Positions 1-56,687 are shown, counted from the first letter of the stretch. The stretch: DNA of 59,669 nucleotides from a virus (IMGVR_UViG_3300030389_003133:1-59669); one strand, 5' to 3'. A program made the numbers and translations. Notes: generated by a model from the letters alone, not told the origin.

Positions 1-99
1 TCTTTTAAAGTACCATCTTCATTGAATAAATTACTGTTAGTTTCCTTAATTTGATTTGTTACTTCTTCTGCTCTTGCTTCTGCTTCAGCAGCTTTTTTT
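1..99. repeat. Terminal direct repeat (assembly circularity overlap), copy 1
   Basis: Bases 1-98 identical to 59571-59668; position 99 is T versus C at 59669. Confidence 0.95.
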
Positions 100-14800: not shown

Positions 14801-17800
14801 TTCTTTTTTTGAAGGACAATTTACAGTAACCTCTAAATCTACAGAACCTGCAGCTATTACTACAATGTCAATAGTATCTTCTGAAACTGTATCTTTATCT
14901 ACAATAAAAGAGCCTGAAGTAGTTGTAGAACCTGAACCAAATGAAACACCGTTGTATTCAGCCGCAACACTAAAACTTCCTGAGTTGTTAATCACCTTGT
15001 AATCCACAACAACATTACCTACAAGACTACCAACATCTACACAAAAAGTGCTAGAGTTTTGAGATGTCACTGACAATGTTCTTGTTATACCACACTCAAT
15101 ACATGGTATGTCTATAGGTAACGGTTCTTCATTTGCACTTAATACAAACTCATTCATATAAGGGTCGTACCCTCCTAATTTTTGAGTATTGAAAGAATTT
15201 AAAAATAAATCTCTAAACCAAGAACGCATACCTGATTCTGAAATAACTGCTAACGCTTCGCTTTGTCCTGAGTTACCTTTTAGTTGAATAACTGCTCCTC
15301 GTTTTGCGTCTGTAAAAAATTTATTGGGACCCCATTTAGCATAACTTTCAGGGTTATGACTAATACCATATTCTTCGATTCTAGCTATCTGAGTACCTAA
15401 AACTTCAGGAACAGAAGCTACTTGACCTCCTCCTGCAGAATCTGATAATAAGTTTTTACCGGCAAGAACATAAGATATTTTATCTTCTTGTAATGTAAGA
15501 ATATCTGTTTCTCTTGCGTCTAGTTTCTGTACGGGACCAAAACTTTCTTCAAGAGGTTTGAAGTTTAATAAACCAAGATTAAACTCGTTTAATTTATTTA
15601 CGTTTGACTCATCATTAAACACACCACTGTATGTTAAATCGGCAAATCTAAACATTTGTTGATAGTCTTGATTGTTGGTAGAAAAAACTCGATTTCCTAA
15701 CTCAAGAGGTTTGCCTTTTATTGAATCTAATACTTGAAAACTTTCAACCCCATTACCCATAGAATAGCAGTTGAAAAACTCTGTATCTATTATTGCAGGA
15801 AGACTTGAACTTTGATTTTGAACATTTCCTGTGTGAGTACCTTCAGCTAATGGAAAACTATCTATTGTTATATTTGCAGTATCAACAGGTGGAGTGGAAG
15901 GGTTTGTTGCCATACTTCCACAAATACCACTTATACCTGTAATTGTTTGGCTTGGTTGAACAATAACTGAAGCTGCAGCATTGTTTAAATCTAAGTAATC
16001 AAATTGAATAGGTTGAGGTTCGTCTGTATCAACTTGTAAACTAAACTCACACTTATCAGTTCCTTGTATTATTGGGTATGAAATAGCACTCTCATACCAA
16101 ACATCAGGTAAAGCATCTTGAGGTTTCGTCTCAAAAGCAATTAAGTTTGCAGTTCTAATAACTTCAATCTGAATTGTTAAACGAGTATTTTTTCTGCTTC
16201 CTGAATAACCTTTTGTACTTTTAAACGTTAAGACAGTACATCCATTTATATCCCTAAACCCTGCATAAAATCTACCTACACTACAACTACCTAAGTTGTT
16301 ACCGCCATTAGGACCTGATATATATTCAAACTCTACATTTGTTCCACTGTCATCTCCGTTACCGGTTATTGCTTGTGCAATGTTGTCACCATTAAACCAA
16401 TCTTGAAAATTATCATAATCTTGAGAAGCGACATAAGTACCCTCTGAAATAAAACTTCTTCTCGATACATTGTTTTTACCATTTCTAAAGTTTTCAATAA
16501 AAATTCTAACACGTGAACCTGCAGGTATAGTATAATCTATACAGGTACCCGGATTAGCAGGGTCATCTATTGTTACGGGATAATTAATAATTCTACAACC
16601 GCTTCCTTTACTTGATTTTCTACCGGGGTTTACTACAGGTGTTTCGTCCTGAGTAATAGAAAACTCATTAGCTCTCATTTTCATATATACTCCTGAAACT
16701 AAGGGTATCTCTACACCACCTGCATCTGTTGGAGGGGGTTGAATAAATTCTCTTGGTTGAGATTTTTTTTCTAAGACAGTAGCGAATGCACATCTATTCA
16801 AAGGACCGGTTGTGTCAGTTTTTACTTGCAATATATCTCCTTCATCAATTTTTTGAGCATTTTCCCCTTCAAGTAAAAAGTAATCAAACCCCGAAGATTG
16901 GTCTCTAAAAAAGAAATTACTATATACGTTAAACCCTCCTTCTTTATCAGCTTTTATGCAAAACTTATATCGTGTTGCCCAAGATGGTGCAATTTGTTGT
17001 GTTGGTATATTAACTCTAATTTGGTTTTGAAGGTCTGATTTTGCACATGGAACACTTACGGTATTGTTTTCGCTAACTTGAACTGTAGTTGCTCTATTAA
17101 AATCATCCATATATACAATACCCACTTCATAACTTCTGTTGGAATGTAAACTTCTTGGATTACCTATTTGTTGGTAAACCACATCTCCTGCCGATATTTT
17201 ATAATATTCAAAAACTCTTTGAGTAATCGCAGCACCTGTAGGGTCGTCAACAAATTCTGCGGCTAATAATTGTATATTTAATATTTGACTTCCTGCAACG
17301 TGATATATCAATAAAGGTTGACCTCCACTTGTAATACCACTATCAAATTTAGTAAGAGCGTCTAAAGTTTGAGGTATAATACAATTAAATTCATCAGTAA
17401 AAGTTCCACCATCACAAGCGTCTGCCATGGGTTGAATTGTAGTAACAGTTCCTATTCTATCTTGGAATTGTTGGCTATTGACTAACTCGGTTAGATTTGC
17501 ATAATCTTGTTGTAAAATAAAATCAAAAGATATTTCACTGTTTTGTGTTGTTTCTGTAGGAAAAGGTTGTTGACCGGTAAATTGTGAGTGGTCAAAATTT
17601 AGTTGAATACTAAACGAAGAGTCTTTTGTAAACTGTATCGGTGATAAAGGAGTTCCTATGTCCCCAAAGTCAATGGATAAAACAGACTCAGCTATAGTTA
17701 CAGTTCCATTTATTTGATAGGTTCCTGATATACTTTCATCTTCTAATGCAGCAAGACCAATTTCGTCTGACACAAGTTCCGTTGTATATCTTAATTGAGT

Positions 17801-18934
17801 TGGCTGACCACCTGCAGTAGTTAAGTCTCTCTGCTCTATATAATTTCCGTAAACAAGTCTATTGCCCATAAGAGTTTGTGCTTGAGCAAATAAAGGAACA
17901 TTGTCATACAATCTTAGTATTTCACTTGTGGGTAGTATCGTAAAGATTTTACTGTTGCTAAATGTATAATCGTATTCGGTATCATTAAATAAACCTAAAT
18001 CTTCTTTATTAAGTTTTTCAATAACTTTAATAACTCCCGTATCCATGTCTTTCCACAATAAATCTACACCGATAACTAAAGGACCTCCTGAATTATAAGT
18101 AATTACACATTGATTTGCCGTATTTTCCATACCATCATTCAATCCTGTTGCTGAATTATAATTAAATGGACCGGGTAAAAATGCCGGACTAGAGAATTGA
18201 GATGTAGCTGAATATTCATTATCAGCATACTTATACCTATAAGCAAAACAACAAAACCTGTCTTCAATAAAATTATTTTGTGAAGCAGTTGCTTGAGGAG
18301 TAACGATTGGTGAATTTAACGGCGGTTTTTTTATAACAAGAATAGCTTCTTGTAATATTTGTGGGAAACCATTATTATCCGTTAAGGATACAGTATTGTT
18401 TGTAGAGGGGTCGGCATATCCGCTAGTTTCATCACCACCTCTCAAAACATTTATAAACCTTGGTGGGTTATAATTATCAGTAAAAAATAACAAAGTTGAA
18501 TCTACAAAATTAACTCCGGTTATTAAATAATCCTCGTTAAAATTCAAAGTTGTGTTTACACCCCCTCCATCATTAACACTTATAATGTGATACGTTAAAA
18601 CATTTTGTTCAACATTTAATGAAACAATTAAGTCTAACTTACCTGTTGGGCTTGAAGAAAATTGTGGGTCGTGAACAAACCAATAGATAGTTTCGTTTGC
18701 TCCATCTTCCAAAGCACCTATACATTTGGCTTCACTTGACAAAGGGTTTCCATCATATTCAAGAGCAGTCAAAGCTACGTTACCTTTGGCATTCTCTACC
18801 GAACCAATCTCGGTTTCTTCTGTAGAACCTAATCTAACGTTTAAAGCATCGACATATTGACCATTAGGAATAAGTCTCTCGTCGAGACCTTTGTTCATTA
18901 TACCCGCTATAAAATTTCTTTGAGTTGTAGGCAT
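11867..18934 (-). CDS. Tail stabilisation/tubular B-like protein with C-terminal Cys-rich repeats (2355 aa)
   Basis: N-terminal NFIAGIMNKGLDERLIPNGQYVDALNVR; FAYRYKY, GNRLVYGNY, YGISHNPES and GGYDPY motifs; six ~130-aa Cys repeats at the C-terminus. Confidence 0.7.
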   Translation of the reverse strand: MPTTQRNFIAGIMNKGLDERLIPNGQYVDALNVRLGSTEETEIGSVENAKGNVALTALEYDGNPLSSEAKCIGALEDGANETIYWFVHDPQFSSSPTGKLDLIVSLNVEQNVLTYHIISVNDGGGVNTTLNFNEDYLITGVNFVDSTLLFFTDNYNPPRFINVLRGGDETSGYADPSTNNTVSLTDNNGFPQILQEAILVIKKPPLNSPIVTPQATASQNNFIEDRFCCFAYRYKYADNEYSATSQFSSPAFLPGPFNYNSATGLNDGMENTANQCVITYNSGGPLVIGVDLLWKDMDTGVIKVIEKLNKEDLGLFNDTEYDYTFSNSKIFTILPTSEILRLYDNVPLFAQAQTLMGNRLVYGNYIEQRDLTTAGGQPTQLRYTTELVSDEIGLAALEDESISGTYQINGTVTIAESVLSIDFGDIGTPLSPIQFTKDSSFSIQLNFDHSQFTGQQPFPTETTQNSEISFDFILQQDYANLTELVNSQQFQDRIGTVTTIQPMADACDGGTFTDEFNCIIPQTLDALTKFDSGITSGGQPLLIYHVAGSQILNIQLLAAEFVDDPTGAAITQRVFEYYKISAGDVVYQQIGNPRSLHSNRSYEVGIVYMDDFNRATTVQVSENNTVSVPCAKSDLQNQIRVNIPTQQIAPSWATRYKFCIKADKEGGFNVYSNFFFRDQSSGFDYFLLEGENAQKIDEGDILQVKTDTTGPLNRCAFATVLEKKSQPREFIQPPPTDAGGVEIPLVSGVYMKMRANEFSITQDETPVVNPGRKSSKGSGCRIINYPVTIDDPANPGTCIDYTIPAGSRVRIFIENFRNGKNNVSRRSFISEGTYVASQDYDNFQDWFNGDNIAQAITGNGDDSGTNVEFEYISGPNGGNNLGSCSVGRFYAGFRDINGCTVLTFKSTKGYSGSRKNTRLTIQIEVIRTANLIAFETKPQDALPDVWYESAISYPIIQGTDKCEFSLQVDTDEPQPIQFDYLDLNNAAASVIVQPSQTITGISGICGSMATNPSTPPVDTANITIDSFPLAEGTHTGNVQNQSSSLPAIIDTEFFNCYSMGNGVESFQVLDSIKGKPLELGNRVFSTNNQDYQQMFRFADLTYSGVFNDESNVNKLNEFNLGLLNFKPLEESFGPVQKLDARETDILTLQEDKISYVLAGKNLLSDSAGGGQVASVPEVLGTQIARIEEYGISHNPESYAKWGPNKFFTDAKRGAVIQLKGNSGQSEALAVISESGMRSWFRDLFLNSFNTQKLGGYDPYMNEFVLSANEEPLPIDIPCIECGITRTLSVTSQNSSTFCVDVGSLVGNVVVDYKVINNSGSFSVAAEYNGVSFGSGSTTTSGSFIVDKDTVSEDTIDIVVIAAGSVDLEVTVNCPSKKEITIIQVCYSLDADAGKFIHNEYSWIDGAFVSPLHSSQVELASGNQNPLISQYEQLSGPQGGGFIPSDTATVTITSNRIQPVDDYVFDPSIDELLYLRTNTFYANTPNDMAALLAAATRATPILGGPNAYQADFAMPNTGEDFLYLLYNYRRPTAIELCLGTSQFDACCDCSATQLLVRECTASLNTTPQEYVITQTQGLVVGSFVEINLGGAGCVYEVIQNSTDAANASVTTVRSDITNCNQVCQTYTVANISGSQQTLNYGDCEGALQSIVVDAGSTETICATSISTYSVLDFTVTKTDCICSVLPPSSVVDIEKCSAITPAVTSHANEDKFQLSVGDFVTVNDGTSPACVWKVTNINSSATAVYDVQTVVTSISDCSDLCQTYQLINTSPDTPTTIDYENCNGENTQEIVGIGETFNFCATSSPFAISGGSHTITQTDCVCALTLYEADICEIQSTNKPTSLTATVVIQDTLNQLSIGDHIFIGGCAYQITKVYTGTDSPVSFDSFSTSFNCNQQCNTYTITNNNNSDRNVGYVDCSGTNISLVVPANSSVDVCTQVDIVSQISDNIEVQLTGCGCNVPDNFEIRQCRADGVTATKIIASNTLKIGDFVTIIGLPDCIWEVISTTSQLPTATFNTLEDNITDCSQVCQEYTVFNSTASPLVYGYTNCAGQTVNVSIPAGGTITVAATALTTATGVVLTLVDCVVNNLEVTQCRLDTPGGVTEVVPAETYQVGDFVHLSNNPNCVWEVTDRVNANVTGVTITGIATTPKGTPLTNCDQVCQTYEASNIGNSSETYLYQDCDGNQQSITIEAGQTEIICVSASLQQPQDIDLLLTDCDCNVTPPATNYALRECSEESNPQTVIAANNLGGITVNVGDFVNLQGSPNCVWEVLAVSSQSATEVIASISTVTECFEVCQQYTVTNTTSLLIQVDYVGCFGARIITDNIPANGSLDLCVREFVSLPPGITIVKTDCQCQE

Positions 18935-38929: not shown

Positions 38930-39038
38930 CTTTATTTAATTTTTCGTTTTTAAGTTTTGTTTTTTCTCGTACAGATTTATTTGGAAATATTTTATCTATA
39001 TATTTTTTCATTCCGTCTGTATGTTCTCTTTGTCTCAT
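38916..39038 (-). CDS. Small hypothetical protein (40 aa)
   Basis: TAATG-coupled to the groEL stop; MRQREHTDGMKKY... Confidence 0.45.
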   Translation of the reverse strand: MRQREHTDGMKKYIDKIFPNKSVREKTKLKNEKLNKDGNK

Positions 39039-40648
39039 TATGCTGAGGTTTCATAACTACGTGCCATAGTAACTATAGCATTAGTTGATAAAATAGTAAC
39101 GGCTACCGATACTGCATTTTGTAAAGCCTGTCTTGTAACTTTTACAGGGTCTATTACTCCAAGAGTCATTAGATAACCATACTTTTCTTTTTTTACATCA
39201 TAACCATAATTAGCACCTTTGCTATTTTTATAAATCTCTTTTAGTTCTAATCCTGCGTTTACTAATATCTGATTCATTGGTGCTGACAATGATTCAGCTA
39301 AAATTGCATAAGCAATTTTTTTTGAAAAATTTTCTTCACTGTTTTCCTGAACCGCACAAGACTTGGCATGATTATATAACGCTAGTCCTCCGCCCGGTAG
39401 TATGCCTTCTTCAAGAGCACTACGTACGGCACACACCGCATCGTCTACTCTATCAAACAATTCTTTTTGTTCTAAGTCTGTATTACCACCAACATATACA
39501 ACACCTATACCTCCGGTTAGCGAAGCTATCCTTTGGTTTATAAAATCTTTATCTTGTTTCTTTGTGGCTTCTTCATACGCCTCATGTAGTTGTGCAACTC
39601 TTTCTTCAACTTCTTCATTGGATGAATCTTCATCTTTCACGATGACTGTTGAGTCACGGCTAACTATCACCTTAGCACAATGACCCAAATCGTTGAAACT
39701 AATCAAACTCAAATCATCGCCTGTCTTTTCGCTAAAGTAAGTTGCACCTATGCTTATTGCAATATCCTGCATTAACTCGTGTTGTCTGTATCCAAAGTCC
39801 GGCGGGACTATGTTACATATCTTTAAACCATTCTTTATTACATTAGCTGCTAAAGTATTTATAACGTTTGTAGAGCACGGAGCTATAATCAAAAGTTTCT
39901 TGCCTTCTGATATTATTGGTTTTAATATATTTTCTATTTGGAGTATGTTGCTTATCTCTCCATCACAAACTAATACGTATGTGTCTTCAAAGACACACTC
40001 ATCTCTCTTTTGGTCATTGATAAATAAGCCTGAAGAATATCCTCTTTTAATTTTTATTCCTTTAGTAGTTTCATAATATGTAGATGAGGTTTTACTTTTT
40101 TCTACTGTGACTACTCCATCCTTACCTACGCTTTCGTAAACGTCCGCAATAATTCCACCAACTTTTTTATCGTTGTTGGCTGATATAATGGCAACGTCCC
40201 GTAATCTTTTTTCGTCTAGCTTCTTGCCTTTTACTTTGAGAGACTTTGAAATTAATTTCGTAATCTCTACCAAATGTCGCAAGACCTCCGTTCGATTTAC
40301 TTTCGAATCTATTAATTTTGTACCTGCATCTACTAATGCTTCTGCTAATACAATAGCAGTTGTCGTTCCATCACCTGCTGAGGTAGCAGTTCTATCTGCA
40401 GCTTCTTTCATCATTCTAACCGCAAGGTTTTCAACCGGGTCTAATAATGAAATTGACTTTGCTACAGTAACACCATCTTTAGTTACTGTTATACCATGTA
40501 AGTGTTCAGGGGATTCTATTAACACAGTGTTTCCTCGAGGACCGAGGGTCGACTTCACTGCGTTAGCGATTTGCTTAATTCCTTTGATTAGTTTTTCTCT
40601 GCCTTCATTATTGAAATGAAGTTCTTTAGGATTGAAACCTTTCTGCAT
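39038..40648 (-). CDS. groEL: Phage chaperonin GroEL (536 aa)
   Basis: TLGPRG, TKDGVTVAK, AGDGTTTA, GILPGGG and GVIDPVKV motifs; lacks the GGM tail. Confidence 0.95.
   Translation of the reverse strand: MQKGFNPKELHFNNEGREKLIKGIKQIANAVKSTLGPRGNTVLIESPEHLHGITVTKDGVTVAKSISLLDPVENLAVRMMKEAADRTATSAGDGTTTAIVLAEALVDAGTKLIDSKVNRTEVLRHLVEITKLISKSLKVKGKKLDEKRLRDVAIISANNDKKVGGIIADVYESVGKDGVVTVEKSKTSSTYYETTKGIKIKRGYSSGLFINDQKRDECVFEDTYVLVCDGEISNILQIENILKPIISEGKKLLIIAPCSTNVINTLAANVIKNGLKICNIVPPDFGYRQHELMQDIAISIGATYFSEKTGDDLSLISFNDLGHCAKVIVSRDSTVIVKDEDSSNEEVEERVAQLHEAYEEATKKQDKDFINQRIASLTGGIGVVYVGGNTDLEQKELFDRVDDAVCAVRSALEEGILPGGGLALYNHAKSCAVQENSEENFSKKIAYAILAESLSAPMNQILVNAGLELKEIYKNSKGANYGYDVKKEKYGYLMTLGVIDPVKVTRQALQNAVSVAVTILSTNAIVTMARSYETSA
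39981..39996. repeat. 16-bp palindrome copy (GTGTCTTCAAAGACAC), intragenic
   Basis: Reads VFEDT in GroEL. Confidence 0.9.
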
Positions 40649-40968: not shown

Positions 40969-41166
40969 TTATTTTTTAAATAAGTCTATGTTAGCCTTAG
41001 CAAGTTCATTACCTTCGGCAATCATTTGTACTTTTTTATAACGCTTCATTGAGTTCTTCATATCAATCATTGCAGTGATACCCATTTGAGGTGTGGGTGC
41101 GTTATTGATAAGCCTTCCGTCTTTTACTTCATAGCCCATCATTGAAGGTGGTATTTTAAAATGCAT
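40969..41166 (-). CDS. Hypothetical protein (65 aa), first gene of the minus-strand block
   Basis: ORF track; GYEVKDGRLIN. Confidence 0.65.
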   Translation of the reverse strand: MHFKIPPSMMGYEVKDGRLINNAPTPQMGITAMIDMKNSMKRYKKVQMIAEGNELAKANIDLFKK

Positions 41167-41188
41167 AACTTATAATTTTTTGTTTCTA

Positions 41189-41196
41189 CAAAGATA
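41189..41196 (-). promoter_or_regulatory. -7 box TATCTTTG
   Basis: Upstream of 41166. Confidence 0.6.
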
Positions 41197-41228
41197 GTAA
41201 AATTTTATTTAGGTGTATGTAGTATTTA

Positions 41229-41445
41229 GGTCCCCCCACCCCACCGGCACCGCACCCTGCTGCGGAAGTCCGTTTTTTTTCTTGGGGGGGGTCGTCGTTT
41301 TTGTGCTGCGGTTCTGATTTTTTTGGCTTTTTCTGTGGTCCCTTTGTCCCTGTGACCTGTAACCTGTTGACGTTCCCCCGTTCCCCCGTTCCTTTGCCCC
41401 CGTTTGGACCGTTAACGTTCCCCCGTTAACGTTCTCCGCCCTCTG
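41229..41445. other. GC-rich, A-poor non-coding segment with C/G runs and CGTTCCCC repeats; candidate genome end/packaging region
   Basis: Composition unlike the rest of the genome; sits at the late/early divergence point. Confidence 0.45.
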
Positions 41446-41467
41446 ATTACGTTTTGAAAGTATGTTT

Positions 41468-41483
41468 GTGTCTTTAAAGACAC
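41468..41483. repeat. Perfect 16-bp palindrome, intergenic
   Basis: GTGTCTTTAAAGACAC upstream of the early promoter. Confidence 0.95.
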
Positions 41484-41617
41484 GAAGTTTAAAGGGAACC
41501 GCAAAGCCCCGAAAATTAGAGCATAATAAAACTTAGGGAATTAACAGAGGTCAAAGCCTTGATTTTCAGAGAGAACAAAAGAAAATTAAAAAAAATGTCA
41601 AAAAACACCGTTCAACC

Positions 41618-41648
41618 TTTGGTAGTTTACAGAAAAGAACTATATTTG
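41618..41648 (+). promoter_or_regulatory. Early promoter, Bacteroidota primary-sigma consensus
   Basis: TTTG (41618)-19 nt-TATATTTG (41641); followed by hairpin GATGAACG/CGTTCATC (41653-41673). Confidence 0.8.
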
Positions 41649-41692
41649 AACAGATGAACGACGAACGTTCATCGTAATTTAAACTTAAATAA

Positions 41693-42325
41693 TTGAAAAT
41701 GAATAATTTAATGCAAATCGAGGCAGATTTTTTAGCCTCACAAAGTGAAGTAAATTTCAGAACTGTTTGGAATTTACAGAATCAAGTAAGCGATGCTAAG
41801 AAATCGAAATTTGATAAGTCGCTAAAGTTAGCGAAGTTAGTGAGCCAATCTTTAGAGTGGTTCAAAAAGCCTGAGACGAAAGGCGAATTACTTGAAGCAG
41901 GTATCGAATGGACCAATGCTGAAGTATTTTTTAACAGAGTGTACGGGTGGCAAAAGTCGTTCGGTCACAAAATGGTTAAAGCAGGTAATCTTGAAACGTC
42001 TTTAGTAACTAAATTCAAGAGAAAATGTACTCAATTAGAGAACAACGGCGAGGATGCAACAAGAAGCATCGAAGCACTTTTGAAATTTGCGAAAGCAGAG
42101 CAAAACGGCGACGAAGCCGAAGTACCAACAAGAGTAAAAACTTTATTCAATTTATCGTTTGCGAAAGACGGTATCAACGGAGAAAGGGGCTATACTTTGA
42201 GAGTAACGGAAACGGGCGAAATCATCGACAACGGCGACGTTGAAAATGATTTAATTGCTAACTACGTTGCGAAACTAGCATCAAGAGTATCAATCGAAAT
42301 TCAAAACTTAAATAATAATCAATAA
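41693..42325 (+). CDS. First early gene, hypothetical (~210 aa; ATG at 41699 is an alternative start)
   Basis: ORF track; directly after the promoter. Confidence 0.75.
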   Translation: MKMNNLMQIEADFLASQSEVNFRTVWNLQNQVSDAKKSKFDKSLKLAKLVSQSLEWFKKPETKGELLEAGIEWTNAEVFFNRVYGWQKSFGHKMVKAGNLETSLVTKFKRKCTQLENNGEDATRSIEALLKFAKAEQNGDEAEVPTRVKTLFNLSFAKDGINGERGYTLRVTETGEIIDNGDVENDLIANYVAKLASRVSIEIQNLNNNQ

Positions 42326-42329
42326 TTCT

Positions 42330-42345
42330 GTGTCTTTAAAGACAC
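42330..42345. repeat. Perfect 16-bp palindrome, intergenic
   Basis: Between the 42325 stop and the 42362 start. Confidence 0.95.
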
Positions 42346-42361
42346 CAAAAAACGTAACACA

Positions 42362-43393
42362 ATGAGAAATTTATTAAACAACGGGGTTAAATTCGAAACT
42401 CTAAACGATAACACAAGACGTGGCGAAATTGTCAGTTATCACTGTAAGCCAAACCCCATTGACCGCTCAAAAGCGGAACAAGTCGACATCAACGGTTTAA
42501 AACCCGTCGACCGTCAGAACGTCAAAATTGACGGGGACGAGTTCGAGAGCCGTTTCAAAATTGGTATGGAGTTCGAAAAGAACCGTTTGAATCGTGGTGC
42601 CGTCCAAGAGTACCCGTTATTCTGTGGGTTCGAGAGAGACAGTTCCTGCGGTTTTAGGTCAGGTCAGGGGGGCTATGAAGCGGTAACCCATATAATACCG
42701 CTTATCGGTCCTAGTATGTGGCGAACAAAGGTCTTTAATATGTTCCACGAAGCACGAAAAATAATCGATGATAATTACAGTCCGTCAAACAGTCGTTGCG
42801 GTGGTCATATTACTTTATCGGTTGACGGTATGAGCGGTGCGGACCTGATGCAAAAAGTGAGAAAATTTTCTCCCGTTATACTTGCTATCTTTAGACACCG
42901 CCTGAATAACGGTTATTGTATGGGTAACCCTCAAATGTTGCCTAGTGTATACGACGGGGTCAATTCAAGCCGTTACGACGGCTCCCGTAAGTACGTCGTT
43001 TGTAAGGATACGGGGTTCGGTATCGAGTTCCGTTTGCCGTCCCGTTTCACGTCTGTGAAGCAAACAATAAGACGATACGAGATAATGTATCACCTCTTAG
43101 ATTTTTCGGTCAACAAACCTAATGCGACCTTGCACAAGTTCCATAACACGTTGAAACCTATTTTAATTTCAATGTACGACGGGAATATTGACAAAGTTGA
43201 TGCGGTCATAGATTTGGCGAAGCACTTCGCCAAGTTTATGGAAACGGGCAAAGTGAATCAACACACCGCCCCATGGCTAGAGGGTTGGTGGTCACGACGT
43301 AACCGAGCCTTTGGGTCTTATAGAAGTTGCTATCAAAGAAACTTCAGACCCGACCAAGACACCGTTTTAGAATGGTTGAGGGTTAACGGTTGA
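42362..43393 (+). CDS. Putative amidoligase (COOH-NH2 ligase, glutamine-synthetase-like fold; 343 aa)
   Basis: IGMEFE, ERDSS, GYEAVT, CGGHIT and IEFRLP motifs in the expected order. Confidence 0.7.
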   Translation: MRNLLNNGVKFETLNDNTRRGEIVSYHCKPNPIDRSKAEQVDINGLKPVDRQNVKIDGDEFESRFKIGMEFEKNRLNRGAVQEYPLFCGFERDSSCGFRSGQGGYEAVTHIIPLIGPSMWRTKVFNMFHEARKIIDDNYSPSNSRCGGHITLSVDGMSGADLMQKVRKFSPVILAIFRHRLNNGYCMGNPQMLPSVYDGVNSSRYDGSRKYVVCKDTGFGIEFRLPSRFTSVKQTIRRYEIMYHLLDFSVNKPNATLHKFHNTLKPILISMYDGNIDKVDAVIDLAKHFAKFMETGKVNQHTAPWLEGWWSRRNRAFGSYRSCYQRNFRPDQDTVLEWLRVNG

Positions 43394-43406
43394 CACCGAC
43401 ACCAAC

Positions 43407-43433
43407 GGACCTTAGCACGTCCCTAAACTGCTA
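43407..43433 (+). ncRNA. H-type pseudoknot candidate upstream of hammerhead 1
   Basis: Stem 1 GGAC(43407-10)/GUCC(43419-22); stem 2 UAGCA(43413-17)/UGCUA(43429-33). Confidence 0.6.
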
Positions 43434-43484
43434 CCGTCGGCGGATGTGTATTCGCCCTGATGAGTTCGAAAGAACGAAACGGTA
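43432..43484 (+). ncRNA. Type III hammerhead ribozyme 1 (cleavage after GUC, C43438)
   Basis: Stem III UACCGU/ACGGUA; stem I GGCGGA/UUCGCC with loop UGUGUA; core CUGAUGA; stem II GUUC-GAAA-GAAC; core GAAA. Confidence 0.93.
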
Positions 43485-43507
43485 ATTTTAATTTAATACT
43501 TATAAAA

Positions 43508-43729
43508 ATGAAAACTTTAAACATTATTCAAAATTCAATCTTAACAATCGTTACACTGTTTGTAATTTCTACATCAATGCGTATACTTTGGCACGTCATC
43601 ACAACCGACGGGGTCGGGGTATCGTGGGCATCTGTAGGGGTCGGGTTATTGTTGGGGTCGTTCCTTGCCTTTCTATGTGGAATGGTCATCACGTTGGTGG
43701 TCAACCTATGGAAAGAAACAATAGCATAG
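43508..43729 (+). CDS. Small two-TM membrane protein (73 aa) flanked by two hammerheads
   Basis: ATG at 43508 after an AU-rich leader; two hydrophobic helices. Confidence 0.7.
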   Translation: MKTLNIIQNSILTIVTLFVISTSMRILWHVITTDGVGVSWASVGVGLLLGSFLAFLCGMVITLVVNLWKETIA

Positions 43730-43746
43730 GCAGAGTCTAAGGGGTT

Positions 43747-43762
43747 GTGTCTTTAAAGACAC
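43747..43762. repeat. Perfect 16-bp palindrome in an extended hairpin, directly 5' of hammerhead 2
   Basis: GGGGTT-GTGTCTTTAAAGACAC-CGCCCC. Confidence 0.95.
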
Positions 43763-43768
43763 CGCCCC

Positions 43769-43817
43769 CCGTAACGGGATGAGTGTCCCGTCTGATGATT
43801 CCAAAAGGATGAAACGG
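43769..43817 (+). ncRNA. Type III hammerhead ribozyme 2 (cleavage after GUA, A43773)
   Basis: Stem III CCGU/ACGG; stem I ACGGGA/UCCCGU with loop UGAGUG; CUGAUGA; stem II U-UCC-AAAA-GGA-U; GAAA. Confidence 0.87.
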
Positions 43818-43836
43818 TAACTTAAAATTTAATAAA

Positions 43837-43974
43837 ATGAAACTAGAAAACTTTAAATGGACAGACGAACTTGTAATGCGATTTGATGGTACATTATTTA
43901 CCTTCGGTCAAAGTAAAGAAAGTAAGATAAAAGAGTTCAAAGAAATGATAATTAATGAATTAAACAATCAATAA
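43837..43974 (+). CDS. Small hypothetical protein (45 aa)
   Basis: Hand translation MKLENFKWTDELVMRF...; 19 nt after hammerhead 2. Confidence 0.65.
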   Translation: MKLENFKWTDELVMRFDGTLFTFGQSKESKIKEFKEMIINELNNQ

Positions 43975-43975
43975 T

Positions 43976-44161
43976 ATGTATACAGTAGTAGGACCGTGGT
44001 CCAATGAAAAAACCACACAATGTGTAATTGAAAAGATACACAGTTGGAGTTATGAAACCAACAAAGGATACATTAACAAGAATTATTGTTATTGTAATGA
44101 AGCGACCGCAAAGGTTGGCGACACAATAAAAGTAAAGGAAAGATTTTTACAAAACTTTTAA
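43976..44161 (+). CDS. Hypothetical protein (61 aa)
   Basis: ORF track; tight packing. Confidence 0.6.
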   Translation: MYTVVGPWSNEKTTQCVIEKIHSWSYETNKGYINKNYCYCNEATAKVGDTIKVKERFLQNF

Positions 44162-44162
44162 T

Positions 44163-44336
44163 ATGGAAGCACTAAAGTCTTATACAATTTACTACAAAGG
44201 AAAGCCCGTCTCACGAGAGGCGGGTTATACCAAGTACCACGCCCTAGACAAGGCGTATACAAATTTGTCTCAAAAATACAAAGGTATCGAGAGAAAAAAC
44301 CTAGACACCAAAAAAAATAAATTTGGTTATGTCTAA
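44163..44336 (+). CDS. Small hypothetical protein (57 aa)
   Basis: Hand translation MEALKSYTIYYKGK...KFGYV. Confidence 0.6.
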   Translation: MEALKSYTIYYKGKPVSREAGYTKYHALDKAYTNLSQKYKGIERKNLDTKKNKFGYV

Positions 44337-44353
44337 ATTTTGTCGTATCTTTG
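44322..44353 (+). promoter_or_regulatory. Second early promoter, Bacteroidota consensus
   Basis: TTTG (44322)-20 nt-TATCTTTG (44346). Confidence 0.75.
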
Positions 44354-44373
44354 TTTAATATTAATCGAGTTCT

Positions 44374-44389
44374 GTGTCTTTTTAGGCAC
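44374..44389. repeat. Degenerate palindrome copy GTGTCTTTTTAGGCAC in a 5' leader
   Basis: Three mismatches; still pairs as GUGUCU/AGGCAC with a G-U wobble. Confidence 0.6.
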
Positions 44390-44408
44390 CGCTCACAAAT
44401 TTAATTTT

Positions 44409-45497
44409 ATGTGTATTATAATAATCAAACAGAAAAACAAAGTAGTACCACGTGAGGTACTCAAAACAAGTTCACGAATCAATCCACACGGGTTGGGTAT
44501 TGTTTGGCTTGACACGTTCGAGACTACATACCACAAGTCAAGAGAATACAAAGTATTGTATACCGACAGACCGTACATCGCTCACTTTAGATATGCTACA
44601 GTTGGGAAAGTTTGCAGAGCAAACACACACCCGTTTGTATGCGGACACAACAAACACGAGTTGCTTATGATGAACGGTACAGTTCACGGGTACGGCAACA
44701 AGAATATGACCGACACCGAGGACCTAGCAATCAAGTTAGGCAGGACACCACGTCACACGTGGAAACAATCCCTAGCCAAGTTTGATGCTCGATTCGTAGC
44801 AATTAACACACGCACACGGTCGTTTCAAATCTTTAACAAGCACCTCTATACATTGAGAGACGGGGTTTGGTATTCAAAGACCAACGTCCTACAAGATAAC
44901 CTCATTGCGGTCTATGGCACATTGCGTAAGGGTAACGGTAACTATTACCGTTACTTGCGTAATGCAAAGCACTTAGGAACGGGAAAGACCAAGTACAAAT
45001 ACCCTATGGTTTCAAACGGTATACCGTACGTCATTCCCGAAAAGGGAAAGGGTCACAACGTAGTTGTTGACGTGTTCAAAGTCAGCGACACCACGTTGCA
45101 GAGAGTGGACAGTTTGGAAGGTCATCCCAAGTGGTACAAGCGAAAGCAGATACTTGTCAAAGTCAATGGCAAGGAGTACCCTTGTTGGTTGTATTTCAAC
45201 GAGGGAGCGAAAACTCAGTGGAACGGGTCAAACCACATCGCCGACTTTAACAACAGACCCAAGCCCAAGTTTACATTTACGAGGCACCCCGAGGCAGATG
45301 CTGAGGACGTGTTCAAGTTTGAGGACTCGCCTGAGTGTACTCAAATAGATATGTATAACGAGTTCGACCGCAGTAAAGAAAAACCGATTTGTATTGACTG
45401 TTATCACGACCTTGAGTTCGACGGGTTTGCTAACTATCATTGCAACGGTTGTGACGGTTGGTTCACGGAAGAAGAAGTGTTACGGTTCCAAGACTAA
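44409..45497 (+). CDS. Class II glutamine amidotransferase + gamma-glutamylcyclotransferase (AIG2-like) + Zn-ribbon fusion (362 aa)
   Basis: Met-Cys N-terminal nucleophile, NPHGLG, HFRYATVG, NTHPF, NG; then AVYGTLRKG and LEGHPKWYKR; C-terminal CxxC...CxxC. Confidence 0.82.
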   Translation: MCIIIIKQKNKVVPREVLKTSSRINPHGLGIVWLDTFETTYHKSREYKVLYTDRPYIAHFRYATVGKVCRANTHPFVCGHNKHELLMMNGTVHGYGNKNMTDTEDLAIKLGRTPRHTWKQSLAKFDARFVAINTRTRSFQIFNKHLYTLRDGVWYSKTNVLQDNLIAVYGTLRKGNGNYYRYLRNAKHLGTGKTKYKYPMVSNGIPYVIPEKGKGHNVVVDVFKVSDTTLQRVDSLEGHPKWYKRKQILVKVNGKEYPCWLYFNEGAKTQWNGSNHIADFNNRPKPKFTFTRHPEADAEDVFKFEDSPECTQIDMYNEFDRSKEKPICIDCYHDLEFDGFANYHCNGCDGWFTEEEVLRFQD

Positions 45498-45510
45498 CCT
45501 AAGTAAGCTC

Positions 45511-45526
45511 GTGTCTTCAAAGACAC
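45511..45526. repeat. 16-bp palindrome copy in an extended hairpin, directly 5' of hammerhead 3
   Basis: AGCTC-GTGTCTTCAAAGACAC-GGGCT. Confidence 0.92.
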
Positions 45527-45530
45527 GGGC

Positions 45531-45583
45531 TACTGTTCAGGAATGTGTGTTCCTGCTGATGAAGTCAAAAGACAGAAACAGTA
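45531..45583 (+). ncRNA. Type III hammerhead ribozyme 3 (cleavage after GUU, U45537)
   Basis: Stem III UACUGU/ACAGUA; stem I CAGGAA/UUCCUG with loop UGUGUG; CUGAUGA; stem II A-GUC-AAAA-GAC-A; GAAA. Confidence 0.87.
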
Positions 45584-45600
45584 ACTTTAAATTTAATAAA

Positions 45601-45942
45601 ATGAATATAGACTTAACACATTTGTCAGAACGAAAGGTCGGACAAAGACAAACAGAAAAAACTATATACCACAATCCACGAACTAACTTGTTTGGATTTA
45701 GCGGAGACGGTATTGGTTTTGTGAAGTACGTAAAGAGCCGTGGCGAAATTCAAAAACGTCAGAACGGATTTACGAAATGGTACCACGGGTCGAGCAATAC
45801 TTTAGTGGAAGCGGTCCGCAACATACGTAAGTGGTACGGCTTGAACGTATCGCCAAGTGGTTGGAACAAGTACCGAGTGAAGTACAGAAACTTAGAGACC
45901 AACGAATTAATTAAAACTTTGTATAACGAAATAAATAAATAA
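45601..45942 (+). CDS. Hypothetical early protein (113 aa)
   Basis: ATG at 45601 after an AU-rich leader, 17 nt past hammerhead 3. Confidence 0.7.
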   Translation: MNIDLTHLSERKVGQRQTEKTIYHNPRTNLFGFSGDGIGFVKYVKSRGEIQKRQNGFTKWYHGSSNTLVEAVRNIRKWYGLNVSPSGWNKYRVKYRNLETNELIKTLYNEINK

Positions 45943-45946
45943 TCAA

Positions 45947-46261
45947 ATGGAAATCGACAGAATAAAATTAGACTTAATGCACGAAGTATTAGACGAGTGC
46001 GAGAATCTACTAAAAACAGAATATAAAGATTCAGACTTCGAAATTTACGGGCTACCTTATGTGAAGCAAGTTATAGGCTTAGTGAGACAAGGAGAGATGA
46101 TACCCCTAGAGCGAATCAAAAGAATCGCAGAGGACATCAAACAAGACGACGAATGGGTAAACGATAGCCACACGTGGAGAGAACATCACGGAATAAACGT
46201 AGGACTTAATACGTTACTCAGACATTTAGAGCAAACAAAAAACATTAACTTAATAAAATAG
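45947..46261 (+). CDS. Hypothetical protein (104 aa)
   Basis: ORF track. Confidence 0.7.
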   Translation: MEIDRIKLDLMHEVLDECENLLKTEYKDSDFEIYGLPYVKQVIGLVRQGEMIPLERIKRIAEDIKQDDEWVNDSHTWREHHGINVGLNTLLRHLEQTKNINLIK

Positions 46262-46263
46262 AT

Positions 46264-46578
46264 ATGGCAATTTATATAACAAAAAAAGATAAGTTCGTTT
46301 GGTTGGACGTTACCGACGCAATGAAATACGGAAAAAAGAAACGTGATGAGATATGGTTAGGTCACGAACTTTATGCAATACACGACGACGACTCAGACAG
46401 TTTGATTGAGTCACACGAGGAGATAGATGAAGCCCTAGAGTTGGGGCTTCGTATCTGTATTGAAGGCGGATACTTGCCGAAGCAATATCACCCACGTAAT
46501 AGTTGGGATGGCACAAGTAAAAAATTGATAGACGGATATTGGTACGTAAAATTAGCAGACCTAAAACTTGCAAAGTAA
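46264..46578 (+). CDS. Hypothetical protein (104 aa)
   Basis: ORF track. Confidence 0.7.
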   Translation: MAIYITKKDKFVWLDVTDAMKYGKKKRDEIWLGHELYAIHDDDSDSLIESHEEIDEALELGLRICIEGGYLPKQYHPRNSWDGTSKKLIDGYWYVKLADLKLAK

Positions 46579-46621
46579 AATAAATTACACTATCTTTAGA
46601 CAAACTTTAAACTTAAATAAA

Positions 46622-46783
46622 ATGGAAATCGAATACACCAACGTAAGATACCGCTCCCTTGACACGGGACACAGAGTAATTCAAAACAAAAGCACGGGCG
46701 AATGGACCGACGTAGTAACGAACCGTAAAGTGCCGTCGTATCGTGTGCATAAATACATTTCACTAACATCAAAACCTATATAA
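46622..46783 (+). CDS. Hypothetical protein (53 aa)
   Basis: ATG after an AU-rich leader inside the track ORF. Confidence 0.6.
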   Translation: MEIEYTNVRYRSLDTGHRVIQNKSTGEWTDVVTNRKVPSYRVHKYISLTSKPI

Positions 46784-46784
46784 C

Positions 46785-47003
46785 ATGGAGAATACATTTA
46801 ACTTTATGAAATCATTTTTGGCAATGGGAGAATTGACCCAAGACAAAAACACGACACTTGCAGACAAAGTAAAATACAAGGAGCGAATTGTTTTTGCTAC
46901 AATGCGAAGTTTAATACCACATTGGGAAGCACCAAGTGATTGGGATAAAATTTCTGATGAGGCTAAATTAGAAAGATTAACTAAAATCGAAAAAGTAATT
47001 TAA
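46785..47003 (+). CDS. Hypothetical protein (72 aa)
   Basis: ORF track. Confidence 0.65.
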   Translation: MENTFNFMKSFLAMGELTQDKNTTLADKVKYKERIVFATMRSLIPHWEAPSDWDKISDEAKLERLTKIEKVI

Positions 47004-47005
47004 TT

Positions 47006-47365
47006 ATGAAAGCAATATATTTAAAAGAAGCATCGGCAGAAAAGATGCGACCAAACCCACACAAGGGATACATACAAAGACTACAAGTAATGGCAGACAA
47101 AGACAAGCCGTTAACGTTTAGTGTCTTTAAAGACACGGGAACTATTTATCATAGAAAAGATTACGAGAAAGATAATGGTAACTTTTGCGGTCATCAATTA
47201 TTAGACGACACTGAAACTGTTATTGTTTACATTGGTTGCACGATAATAGAATGCAACAAAGACAATGAGTGGTCAGTGCAGATTGGTCAAGACGTTCACA
47301 AAAGTAAAGACGTGGAGGAAGTAGAGAAAAAGTTATATGAATTTTATTTATCAGAAATACAATAA
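47006..47365 (+). CDS. Hypothetical protein (119 aa)
   Basis: ORF track. Confidence 0.65.
   Translation: MKAIYLKEASAEKMRPNPHKGYIQRLQVMADKDKPLTFSVFKDTGTIYHRKDYEKDNGNFCGHQLLDDTETVIVYIGCTIIECNKDNEWSVQIGQDVHKSKDVEEVEKKLYEFYLSEIQ
47121..47136. repeat. Perfect 16-bp palindrome, intragenic
   Basis: Reads VFKDT. Confidence 0.95.
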
Positions 47366-47700
47366 TGGATACTACAGAACTCATTAAAGACGAAGCAAAT
47401 AAGATAATAAATCTTTTGCTTGAAAAGAACAAGGCTTATGGCGACACTGCTAACAACCCCCCGCAAATCTTCAGCAAACTAGAGGCAGTCGAGGGATTGT
47501 GTGCAAGGATAGACGACAAACTATCTAGAATAAAAACCAAAGGCATAACAGACCTAACAGAGGATACGGTATCCGACTTGATTGGATACCTTATCTTGTT
47601 GAAAGTGCAATTAAGAAAACAAGACGAGGTTATAAAAGAAAAACTCATTGCCAAAAAGAATGAGAAAAAAACAGATAATTTTCCCGTCTTCTTTTTCTAA
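47365..47700 (+). CDS. Nucleotide-modification-associated domain 1 (DUF1599-like, all-alpha NTP-PPase-like) protein (111 aa)
   Basis: KNKAYG...RIDDKLSRI...EDTVSDLIGY pattern. Confidence 0.65.
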   Translation: MDTTELIKDEANKIINLLLEKNKAYGDTANNPPQIFSKLEAVEGLCARIDDKLSRIKTKGITDLTEDTVSDLIGYLILLKVQLRKQDEVIKEKLIAKKNEKKTDNFPVFFF

Positions 47701-48242: not shown

Positions 48243-48672
48243 CTATTCGCCCCAAGATATAATGCAACAAGCAATAGAAGATAACTATGCAGTCGACGTA
48301 AGCGGAGACGGATACATTGGTAAAATTTTATACGGTTGTAAAATATCTATGGACAATGAAAGCAAGGAGGTTGTTATACAATCGACAACAATGGGTGGAG
48401 AATATTACAAAGAAGTCCCGTCAGATATACACGAAATTTTTTTAAAAAAAGGTTGGAGAATTGGTGTCTATGAATTATCTTTGTCTAACTATCGTACAAA
48501 ACTCGATAGGATTGGTCAGAGTATAAAGGCAGAAGTTAACGGTAGAAAAAACCCGAAACAAATTCAGTCACTCAAAGCATCAAGAGAAAGTATCTTAAAG
48601 AGATACAGTAAAATTAAAAGTAAATTAAATCAAATATCAAATGAAACTCAAGACAGTAAACATCAAAGGTAA
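48208..48672 (+). CDS. Hypothetical protein (up to 154 aa; start uncertain)
   Basis: ORF track. Confidence 0.6.
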   Translation: MIMNSPLINLPNYSPQDIMQQAIEDNYAVDVSGDGYIGKILYGCKISMDNESKEVVIQSTTMGGEYYKEVPSDIHEIFLKKGWRIGVYELSLSNYRTKLDRIGQSIKAEVNGRKNPKQIQSLKASRESILKRYSKIKSKLNQISNETQDSKHQR

Positions 48673-49168
48673 AGAGTATGTTGAGGTAAATGAAAGACTT
48701 ATTTATTTCAGAAAACACTTTCCAAAGCACTCACTAATTACAGAAGTCATAGAGAAAACAGAAAACTCTATTTTAATTATGGCTTATGTTATAGACGAGA
48801 ATGACAACACCATCGCTACGGGGTTGGCAGAAGAAATCAAAGGCAGCACCTTTATTAATAAGACATCATACGTGGAGAACTGCGAAACCTCAGCGTGGGG
48901 TAGAGCGTTAGCAAACTTTGGAATTGGATTAGACACATCAGTCGCATCAGCAGACGAGGTATCTAATGCTATTGCTAATTCAGAAGTGTCTTCAAAGACA
49001 CCAAAGAAACCATTACTTAAATTGGGAACTGCTAATTGGGTCAAGGCACAGAAGTGGATTGATGCTAATAAAAGCAAAGGCATGGATAGTTTGGTCAACA
49101 CATTAGAGACCAAGTATTCTTTGTCAGCAAATGCTAAATCAGAAATCAAAAAAATTCTAGCACAATGA
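48641..49168 (+). CDS. Single-strand annealing protein, Rad52/Sak-like (175 aa)
   Basis: IKGKEYVEVNERL...ATGLAEE...ENCETSAWGRALANFGIG; next to exonuclease and SSB-like genes. Confidence 0.6.
   Translation: MKLKTVNIKGKEYVEVNERLIYFRKHFPKHSLITEVIEKTENSILIMAYVIDENDNTIATGLAEEIKGSTFINKTSYVENCETSAWGRALANFGIGLDTSVASADEVSNAIANSEVSSKTPKKPLLKLGTANWVKAQKWIDANKSKGMDSLVNTLETKYSLSANAKSEIKKILAQ
48986..49001. repeat. 16-bp palindrome copy (GTGTCTTCAAAGACAC), intragenic
   Basis: Reads VSSKT. Confidence 0.9.
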
Positions 49169-56311: not shown

Positions 56312-56687
56312 AACCTGTTCACACTGCAATCAAAGAAAACATATATCCGACTTTTATCTTTCAGGTAAGTTTACAAAAGCAGGGAAAAACATCCCTAGCA
56401 GAAAATGTAAAAAGTGTGTCAATGAAATTAAAAAAAACAGAAGACACAATATTAGAGCATGGCTCAAACAATATAAAAGAAATAGTAAATGTTCAATATG
56501 TGGATACTCAAAGGAAACACATCCAAATTTTTCTATACACGCTTTGGAGTTTCATCACCCACAAAACAATAAAGAATTTGCAATAGGAGAAGCAGCAGCA
56601 AGAGGTTTGGCTATAAAAAAAATTAAAAAAGAAATTGATAAATGTGTTATCTTGTGCTCACGTTGTCATACAGAAATTCATCATTAA
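56301..56687 (+). CDS. HNH-like endonuclease with Zn fingers (128 aa)
   Basis: Several CxxC pairs, LEFHH, LCSRCHTEIH. Confidence 0.75.
   Translation: MTYRTCSHCNQRKHISDFYLSGKFTKAGKNIPSRKCKKCVNEIKKNRRHNIRAWLKQYKRNSKCSICGYSKETHPNFSIHALEFHHPQNNKEFAIGEAAARGLAIKKIKKEIDKCVILCSRCHTEIHH

Follow-up and report, generated by a model that had tools for sequence, protein, structure and literature searches.

Virus record IMGVR_UViG_3300030389_003133 (positions 1-59669, the whole stretch of DNA analyzed and hereafter the window) is a complete IMG/VR entry 59,669 bases long, in which three short intergenic elements carry the sequence and predicted fold of type III hammerhead ribozymes. We consider it likely that all three are functional type III self-cleaving ribozymes, and that they cut the transcript of the operon in which they lie into separate mRNA segments. 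Judged from sequence comparison, the features that make these hammerheads catalytically competent are under purifying selection as RNA, on the sense strand and at gene junctions. The processing mechanism is a published hypothesis from 2011 and is not new here (PMC3088659, accessible part). What the window offers is a clean natural case for the open question of what phage hammerheads are for, without answering it: one operon holds three copies of one subfamily, graded at the most conserved pair of stem II (G-C, U.U and A.A), and the module of hairpin, ribozyme, leader and ATG recurs in over a hundred viral contigs.

Three hammerhead elements in one gene block

The three elements are located as follows, counted from the first base of the window:

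43432..43484, plus strand: hammerhead 1, type III, triplet GUC, predicted cut 43438/43439
43769..43817, plus strand: hammerhead 2, type III, triplet GUA, predicted cut 43773/43774
45531..45583, plus strand: hammerhead 3, type III, triplet GUU, predicted cut 45537/45538

Read 5' to 3', each element consists of the stem III 5' strand (ending in GU), H17, stem I, the core, stem II, GAAA and the stem III 3' strand, and the three align without gaps over 53 columns. The conserved core C3-U4-G5-A6-N7-G8-A9 is present in all three as CUGAUGA, together with G12-A13-A14 and the A15.1-U16.1 pair, in which the last A of GAAA pairs with the U before H17, and H17 itself is never G (C43438, A43773 and U45537). 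Loops close stems I and II and stem III is open in each, which is the type III topology, and loops 1 and 2 take the forms UGNGUR and RAAA throughout. Element 1 has a stem III of 6 base pairs (bp), a stem I of 6 bp with loop UGUGUA, the core CUGAUGA, and a stem II of 4 bp with loop GAAA, followed by GAAA. In element 2 a stem III of 4 bp and a stem I of 6 bp with loop UGAGUG precede the same core, a stem II of U.U plus 3 bp with loop AAAA, and GAAA; element 3 has a stem III of 6 bp, a stem I of 6 bp with loop UGUGUG, the core, a stem II of A.A plus 3 bp with loop AAAA, and GAAA. The 10.1-11.1 pair is thus of Watson-Crick type in element 1 only (G-C), element 2 having U.U and element 3 A.A instead. 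Each isolated 53-mer has the three-way hammerhead junction as its minimum-free-energy fold.

The first-pass annotation had described a full hammerhead core with a GUH triplet (GUC, GUA and GUU) at these positions, a type III fold, and a UG-N-GU-N loop 1 facing a purine tetraloop 2. Each of these descriptions is borne out, the first by the sequence and its ungapped 53-column alignment, the second by the folds and by covariation in relatives, and the third by the loop types found in 3/3 elements. Its further statement, that the stems vary yet keep pairing, stands in part: covariation supports it, but stem II begins with a mismatch in elements 2 (U.U) and 3 (A.A). The reported sense-strand, intergenic placement 17-23 nucleotides (nt) before an ATG also agrees with what we find, all three elements being intergenic, on the same strand as the flanking open reading frames (ORFs), and 23, 19 and 17 nt from ATGs 43508, 43837 and 45601. 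All three copies fall in a span of 2.2 kb, and a single ORF of 73 amino acids (aa) separates elements 1 and 2, which is the clustered phage arrangement.

The pattern CTGATGA-N8-30-GAAA occurs six times in the window, against 1.07 +/- 1.27 in shuffled sequences, of which 1/100 reached six. The other three occurrences are absent from the matches of our custom covariance model at E <= 10, and that model, which was built from the three copies and one Pseudomonas phage copy, finds no fourth copy in the window, its next best match being 11.6 bits at 56354-56405 on the minus strand.

Covariation, synteny and the wider subfamily

Within the set of four sequences from which the model was built, 8 of the 16 pairs change on both sides with pairing kept. 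Overall, 92.2% of cells are paired versus 77.3% after shuffling (1/500 shuffles as high), the covariation score is 0.646 versus 0.283 in shuffles, and stem I is paired in 100% of cells. The 343-aa gene upstream of element 1 served as the marker for fetching relatives, which gave eight IMG/VR loci at 41-85% protein identity. All eight contain hammerheads by the custom model, 24 further copies in total with scores of 44.8-75.2 bits, all on the gene strand, and the related whole records hold 3, 2, 2, 4, 5, 5, 1 and 3 copies. In the resulting alignment of 28 sequences (26 distinct), stem I is again fully paired, compensatory changes are seen in 6/6 stem I pairs and 3/4 stem II pairs, and covariation reaches 0.723 versus 0.231 shuffled (0/500 as high), falling to 0.065-0.108 when partners are slid. 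The core varies only at N7 (U, C or A), a position that the family consensus leaves free.

Synteny in related phages, a comparison suggested by the first-pass annotation, came out clearly: a hammerhead lies 3' of the 343-aa gene in the window and in 7/7 related loci spanning this junction, and stem I differs from locus to locus. In a close relative (L006) the corresponding junctions also hold copies, which differ from those of the window only at loop positions, at N7, by a stem I change from G.U to G-C, and by compensatory stem changes, with U.U and A.A kept; its counterpart of element 3 retains A.A alongside a compensatory change in stem III. Ahead of the 343-aa gene, four more distant relatives (L009-L012) carry a hammerhead at the junction, where the window has just the hairpin. 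Copies are gained and lost between relatives.

These comparisons bear on the notion that the elements are chance motifs, or DNA-level elements (promoters, terminators or recombination cassettes) that merely resemble hammerheads, to which we give almost no credence. The elements do adjoin a 16-nt palindrome that recurs through the genome, and a given junction may have a copy in one relative and none in another, much as with mobile regulatory cassettes. However, three helices are held by compensatory changes while the core stays fixed, for which no DNA-level model accounts; elements 1 and 3 score only ~8 bits when read on the reverse strand, and the junctions are without a promoter-like motif.

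The three elements can be placed in a compact 53-nt phage subfamily together with the single copy of Pseudomonas phage PaP3 and its relatives. Element 2 stands unusually near to the single copy of Pseudomonas Bruynoghevirus, which it matches at 93.6% identity over 47 nt (blastn, 65 records) and differs from the phiIBB-PAA2 hammerhead at 8 of 53 positions, while members of the family differ from one another at a mean of 14.75 of 28 stem positions. A pattern scan of IMG/VR for this architecture returned at least 119 stretches; the pattern fixed the core and both loops, so that only the remaining positions are informative, and part of the family-wide conservation of loops 1 and 2 follows from the search itself. 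The counts given here for 80 loci, 112 distinct 53-mers and 135 contexts apply to the matches listed. Those 80 IMG/VR loci, which are other than the related loci, contain at least 127 model matches, and most have a G+C content of 31-40%; among the matches listed, two to five copies occur in 33 of 83 loci with a match. Covariation is 0.848 versus 0.212 shuffled (0/500 as high), and stem I is paired in 99.9% of cells. H17, a position left free in the search pattern, is A in 58, C in 43, U in 11 and G in none of the 112 distinct members. The 10.1/11.1 positions are U.U in 55, G-C in 50, A.A in six and C/U in one. N7 alone varies within the core of 111/112, G12-A13-A14 is found in 112/112, and the U-A pair in 111/112.

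One unannotated subfamily hammerhead (41.5 bits) is present in the cultured Flavobacterium phage vB_FspP_elemoA_13-1A (MT497065.1, 18490-18544, minus strand), 14 nt before the first coding sequence of a leftward block and beside a divergent region.

Proposed transcript cutting and its alternatives

Around the ribozymes, and at the head of the rightward block, the following features were noted:

41619..41648, plus strand: promoter-like motif TTG-N19-TAnnTTTG, Bacteroidota-type, from a script scan; before the first gene of the rightward block
43485..43507, plus strand: AU-rich leader of 23 nt, from hammerhead 1 to ATG 43508; unpaired in the context fold
43741..43768, plus strand: hairpin on palindrome GTGTCTTTAAAGACAC, extended by GGGG/CCCC; abuts hammerhead 2
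43818..43836, plus strand: AU-rich leader of 19 nt before ATG 43837; unpaired in the context fold
45507..45530, plus strand: hairpin on palindrome GTGTCTTCAAAGACAC; abuts hammerhead 3
45584..45600, plus strand: AU-rich leader of 17 nt before ATG 45601; unpaired in the context fold

The order of the module is stop codon, hairpin (elements 2 and 3), hammerhead, an open leader of 17-23 nt, and ATG; element 1, unlike elements 2 and 3, has no palindrome hairpin upstream. Folded in context with an open leader, the hairpin and hammerhead 2 reach z = -3.59 and the hairpin and hammerhead 3 reach z = -4.24, with 0/200 shuffles as stable in either case. We surveyed 135 non-redundant contexts of the wider family, counting only an ATG that opens an ORF of at least 30 codons. 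Such an ATG lies 17-30 nt downstream in 95/135 and 31-60 nt downstream in 24/135, and a hairpin of -8 kcal/mol or better ends no more than 8 nt upstream in 87/133. The 40 nt upstream fold at a mean of -10.8 kcal/mol, versus -5.2 for a control stretch 150 nt further up. The motif that follows the ribozyme (GAAACNGTAAYTT) is not enriched, with 25 matches against 23.1 expected.

The hairpins beside the hammerheads of relatives keep the GTGTC/GACAC arms, with varied loops. In the window, the 16-nt palindrome GTGTCTTYAAAGACAC is found at 15 places (up to three mismatches) against 1.5 expected over both strands, namely at 2852, 9841, 21679, 28859, 39981, 41468, 42330, 43747, 44374, 45511, 47121, 48986, 49928, 53082 and 54316. 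Many copies are at gene junctions and several lie within long ORFs, among them the genes for the chaperonin and the SNF2-type helicase and ORFs 47006-47365 and 48641-49168; by position, the copies at 2852 and 28859 are inside a 2256-aa ORF and the terminase gene.

Two other roles for the hairpins were considered and set aside. They are not called terminators because they lack a U-tract. A role as promoter for a phage RNA polymerase was dropped as well; the giant ORF at 3-6770 has no PHROG family, and that at 11867-18934 falls in a virion structural family. Scans for sigma-70 promoters and intrinsic terminators across 41000-47500 were near shuffle expectation, with nothing at the junctions.

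The motif at 41619..41648 is a candidate start of the ribozyme-bearing transcript, as a match to what we take to be the Bacteroidota-type promoter consensus. Across the whole window this motif has 15 plus-strand and three minus-strand matches, compared with 6.9 +/- 2.5 expected, and the same consensus scan finds none in the short hammerhead junctions. The junction before the 362-aa gene (44323-44408) has a promoter-like motif (44323-44353), a degenerate palindrome (44374-44389, three mismatches) and no hammerhead, and its ATG at 44409 is preceded by an AU-rich leader like those after the hammerheads.

Under the reading we favor, the rightward block would be transcribed from upstream promoters, and the hairpin and hammerhead are predicted to fold as they emerge at each junction. 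By the established chemistry of the family, cuts would fall 3' of C43438, A43773 and U45537, producing 2',3'-cyclic phosphate and 5'-OH ends. The upstream RNA would be left with a stable hairpin and 5-7 nt at its 3' end, while the downstream RNA would start with the folded 47-nt ribozyme body, followed by 17-23 nt of unstructured AU-rich leader and the AUG. The operon would thereby be split into a first segment with the 210-aa and 343-aa genes, a second with only the 73-aa gene, a third of four genes, the last of them cyclotransferase-like, and the remainder, and the expected effect is that mRNA stability and translation initiation of each segment are insulated from its neighbors. Cutting into gene-length mRNAs is plausible given the anatomy of the locus, with its intergenic sites, short junctions free of the Bacteroidota-type motif, conserved upstream hairpin and open leader.

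Double cleavage at elements 1 and 2 would free the 73-aa ORF on an RNA of 335 nt (43439-43773), which might then refold as a nicked hammerhead and be ligated, by the reverse reaction or an RtcB-type ligase, into a circular mRNA. In the minimum-energy and centroid folds of the excised segment, the 3' terminal CCGU indeed pairs with the stem III 3' strand of hammerhead 1, and the ends are joined in a complete junction. We nevertheless find this outcome very improbable, since the stem III sequences of neighbors match in 22 of 36 adjacent pairs, versus 0.61 for random family pairs; their compatibility is thus no commoner than at random and simply follows from how little stem III varies. Perreault et al. 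searched clustered phage hammerheads for circular or spliced products, and none were found as far as the accessible part of the paper goes (PMC3088659).

A further possibility is that cleavage serves mainly as a decay trigger or attenuator, lowering the expression of the downstream (or upstream) genes through ends exposed to host RNases, with U.U and A.A tuning the cut fraction. The glmS ribozyme is a precedent, its 5'-OH product being degraded by RNase J1 in Bacillus. The mixture of states at 10.1/11.1 (G-C 50, U.U 55 and A.A six of the 112 members listed) fits such a role, and their preservation between close-relative counterparts suggests rates that are tuned rather than maximal; regulated or slower phage variants are also raised in the accessible part of PMC3088659. 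Yet the downstream product would begin with two stable helices and the upstream product would end in a hairpin, which looks like protection of both, and the leader is open, with the 17-30 nt spacing to the ATG in 95/135 contexts listed keeping the downstream gene translatable. We therefore judge decay as the main purpose to be unlikely.

Several results weigh against self-cleavage of the operon transcript. The Rfam search proposed in the first-pass annotation was only partly favorable: there are no matches in the whole window at gathering threshold, and no Rfam hammerhead model picks up element 3, even at E <= 10 with the search confined to 121 nt. The gathering cut-off for RF00008 (Hammerhead_3), 48.5 bits, is a curated score and not a biological feature, and in a permissive search of 2.4 kb this type III model aligns elements 1 and 2 over their full length, at 46.7 bits (E = 1.6e-8) and 29.3 bits (E = 0.0014), respectively. 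At E <= 1, Rfam finds no hammerhead in the phiIBB-PAA2 and MW202828.1 loci either, while the custom model does detect the phiIBB-PAA2 copy. Phage genomes probably contain more members of this subfamily than are annotated, since Rfam thresholds miss 3/3 copies. The 10.1-11.1 pair, one of the two most conserved of the family, is lacking in elements 2 and 3, and our literature search found no published activity data for A.A at this position. In the context fold of element 1, an upstream ACCG (~43395-43398) replaces the proper stem III 5' strand, so that misfolding could compete; this pairing, if real, could delay or modulate cleavage of element 1. Promoter-like motifs also occur inside the block (43188-43216 and 44323-44353), and transcripts need not therefore all be one long RNA. 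The custom model finds no copy in MW202828.1, and four of the five cultured relatives scanned have none, from which it follows that the elements are dispensable for this phage type. The alignments used for pair counts were fitted to the model, and the IMG/VR pattern, as said, predetermined core and loops. Finally, the runs containing the stretch include no RNA run; contigs of two DNA runs cover it, while two sets of metatranscriptome contigs, from the sample behind one DNA run, gave no match, a result that is silent on expression.

Some of these points would also suit a structural RNA with no significant cleavage, whereby some copies, especially element 3 with its A.A, no longer cut and act only as stable 5'-proximal structures or protein-binding sites at gene junctions. 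Element 3 is the copy that Rfam misses, and core-adjacent mispairs are a ground for rejection unless activity is shown, according to the accessible part of PMC3088659. The same source lists U10.1-U11.1 as the best tolerated of all mispairs. However, the catalytic positions are intact in 3/3 elements, A.A is found in several distinct phages, surrounded by compensatory changes, and G is never found at H17 in the 112 distinct members listed, a constraint that only catalysis explains. A purely structural role thus seems to us quite improbable, and cleavage of the transcript at the three junctions remains the reading we hold to.

We also entertain, tentatively and with rather less than even confidence, a broader proposal in which the selected unit is a portable cassette of protective hairpin, 53-nt hammerhead and fixed-length leader before an ATG, the natural equivalent of a synthetic ribozyme insulator. 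Each cistron would be given a defined 5'-OH end and an open ribosome-loading region. The cassette would be gained or lost junction by junction and would have spread among phages whose hosts are unrelated, reaching from those of marine Flavobacteriia to the Bruynoghevirus of Pseudomonas. U.U and A.A would set junction-specific cutting rates, and hence the ratio of joined to separated mRNAs.

Genome context and comparison with known systems

The genome is that of a ~60-kb marine podophage, kin to phages of Flavobacteriia. Its portal protein shares 76% identity with the one in the uncultured record MW202828.1, the closest named relative, and 45% with those of Flavobacterium phages of the genus Elemovirus, with Maribacter, Cellulophaga and Tenacibaculum phages more remote. 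The DNA runs that contain the stretch are marine metagenomes. Based on these runs and on the portal relatives, the host is most likely a marine member of Flavobacteriia. Structural genes (portal, large terminase and virion proteins) are on the minus strand, and a plus-strand block that includes a primase/helicase-like gene and an SNF2-type helicase starts at ~41.7 kb. The operon may be termed early from its position alone, the elements being in the first 4 kb of this rightward non-structural block. The genes around the three elements are:

42362..43393, plus strand: 343-aa ORF (ORF call), no PHROG or Pfam family; directly upstream of element 1
43508..43729, plus strand: 73-aa hydrophobic small ORF (translation); sole gene between hammerheads 1 and 2
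from ATG 43837, plus strand: 45-aa ORF, then 61-aa, 57-aa and 362-aa ORFs (ORF call)
44409..45497, plus strand: 362-aa gamma-glutamyl cyclotransferase-like gene (Pfam GGACT, 8.7e-22; PHROG 2520, 1.9e-23)
from ATG 45601, plus strand: 113-aa ORF (ORF call); downstream of hammerhead 3

PHROG and Pfam searches assigned no family to the 73-aa ORF, whose hydrophobic stretches were judged by eye, without a predictor. The 362-aa gene closes the segment between hammerheads 2 and 3; the GGACT domain of its product covers residues 167-266, and the N-terminal part resembles class-II glutamine amidotransferase domains weakly and below threshold. The annotation of PaP3 also includes an aminotransferase-like ORF. 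A GroEL-type chaperonin is encoded at 39038-40648 on the minus strand (Cpn60_TCP1, 5.6e-57), and MW202828.1 annotates one too. Between the leftward and rightward gene blocks, the divergent intergenic region 41364-41436 holds C-rich direct repeats (about 14-17 nt, core ACGTTCCCCCGTT, three to four copies) and overlapping GTTAACG palindromes. Both are reminiscent of iterons or operators, and an origin or a regulatory region could lie here.

Hundreds of bacterial and phage hammerheads were reported by Perreault et al. (2011), who describe clusters flanking single prophage genes and propose that long phage transcripts are thereby converted into gene-length mRNAs; three tandem arrangements cleave in vitro and one, that of A. 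tumefaciens, also in E. coli (PMC3088659, accessible part). As far as the accessible parts of later papers go, a 2019 review repeats the processing idea as still unproven and calls for more work on the purpose of phage hammerheads (PMC6765202), and a 2026 paper treats hammerheads in DNA phages as already described (PMC13725137). Our literature search, which left most subscription journals outside its scope, found no paper on Flavobacteriia-phage hammerheads or on a hairpin-hammerhead-leader module. Relative to the literature searched, the recurrence of A.A, this stereotyped module and the marine Flavobacteriia-phage lineage itself appear to be new, while the supplementary alignments of PMC3088659 may already include marine members of this subfamily. 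Single copies in the cultured phage vB_FspP_elemoA_13-1A and in the PaP3 group make the role testable by phage genetics and end-specific RNA sequencing.

The early mRNA of phage T7, the analogy drawn in the first-pass annotation, offers a parallel in logic, with RNase III sites whose intercistronic cuts give the upstream product a 3'-terminal hairpin, as is proposed here. The T7 system differs in relying on a host protein enzyme, with another structure and chemistry, and in leaving 5'-phosphate and 3'-OH ends. RiboJ-type synthetic insulators place a type III hammerhead just upstream of the ribosome-binding region, and give a uniform mRNA 5' end whatever lies upstream. RiboJ is an engineered part, whereas the arrangement in the window is natural and its insulating role putative.

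A close natural counterpart is the hammerhead of PaP3 and other Bruynoghevirus members, which has the same 53-nt architecture and loop types (UGNGUG with AAAA or UAAA), the same U.U as element 2, and likewise sits on the sense strand directly before an ORF. It differs in being present as one copy per genome, in the leader of the first early gene, compared with three copies at internal junctions here, and in overlapping the ATG, while the window copies stand 17-23 nt from it, with a hairpin before elements 2 and 3. In phiIBB-PAA2 (KF856712.1, 1088-1140) the stem III 3' strand overlaps the ATG of the first early ORF and AGGA is inside stem II; in PaP3 (AY078382.2, 45417-45469) the copy abuts the start of orf71 and has U.U at 10.1/11.1. 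The folded ribozyme of both phages would cover the ribosome-binding region, a hint that cleavage or folding may be linked to translation. A PaP3 intergenic hammerhead, reported to be active in vitro, is listed among active core variants in PMC3088659, and its identity with the 53-nt subfamily copy is not confirmed in the accessible part of that source.

From the same accessible part (PMC3088659), the HHphage hammerhead of haloviruses HF1 and HF2 lies in an early polycistronic transcript, 13 nt before the first ORF's start codon, a positional logic like that of the 17-23 nt seen here, and a mapped 5' end is within 3 nt of its cut site. It differs as a single-copy, high-salt-dependent structural variant from an archaeal virus. 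The clustered prophage hammerheads described there (the Agrobacterium tumefaciens ardA triple, Clostridium scindens and Azorhizobium caulinodans) resemble the window in layout, with several copies within a few kb that flank single genes or short blocks. Those clusters belong to prophages in bacterial genomes and, by the legend of Figure 3, mix types I, II and III, whereas the window is a free ~60-kb virus record with one type III subfamily, an adjoining hairpin and a fixed distance to the ATG.

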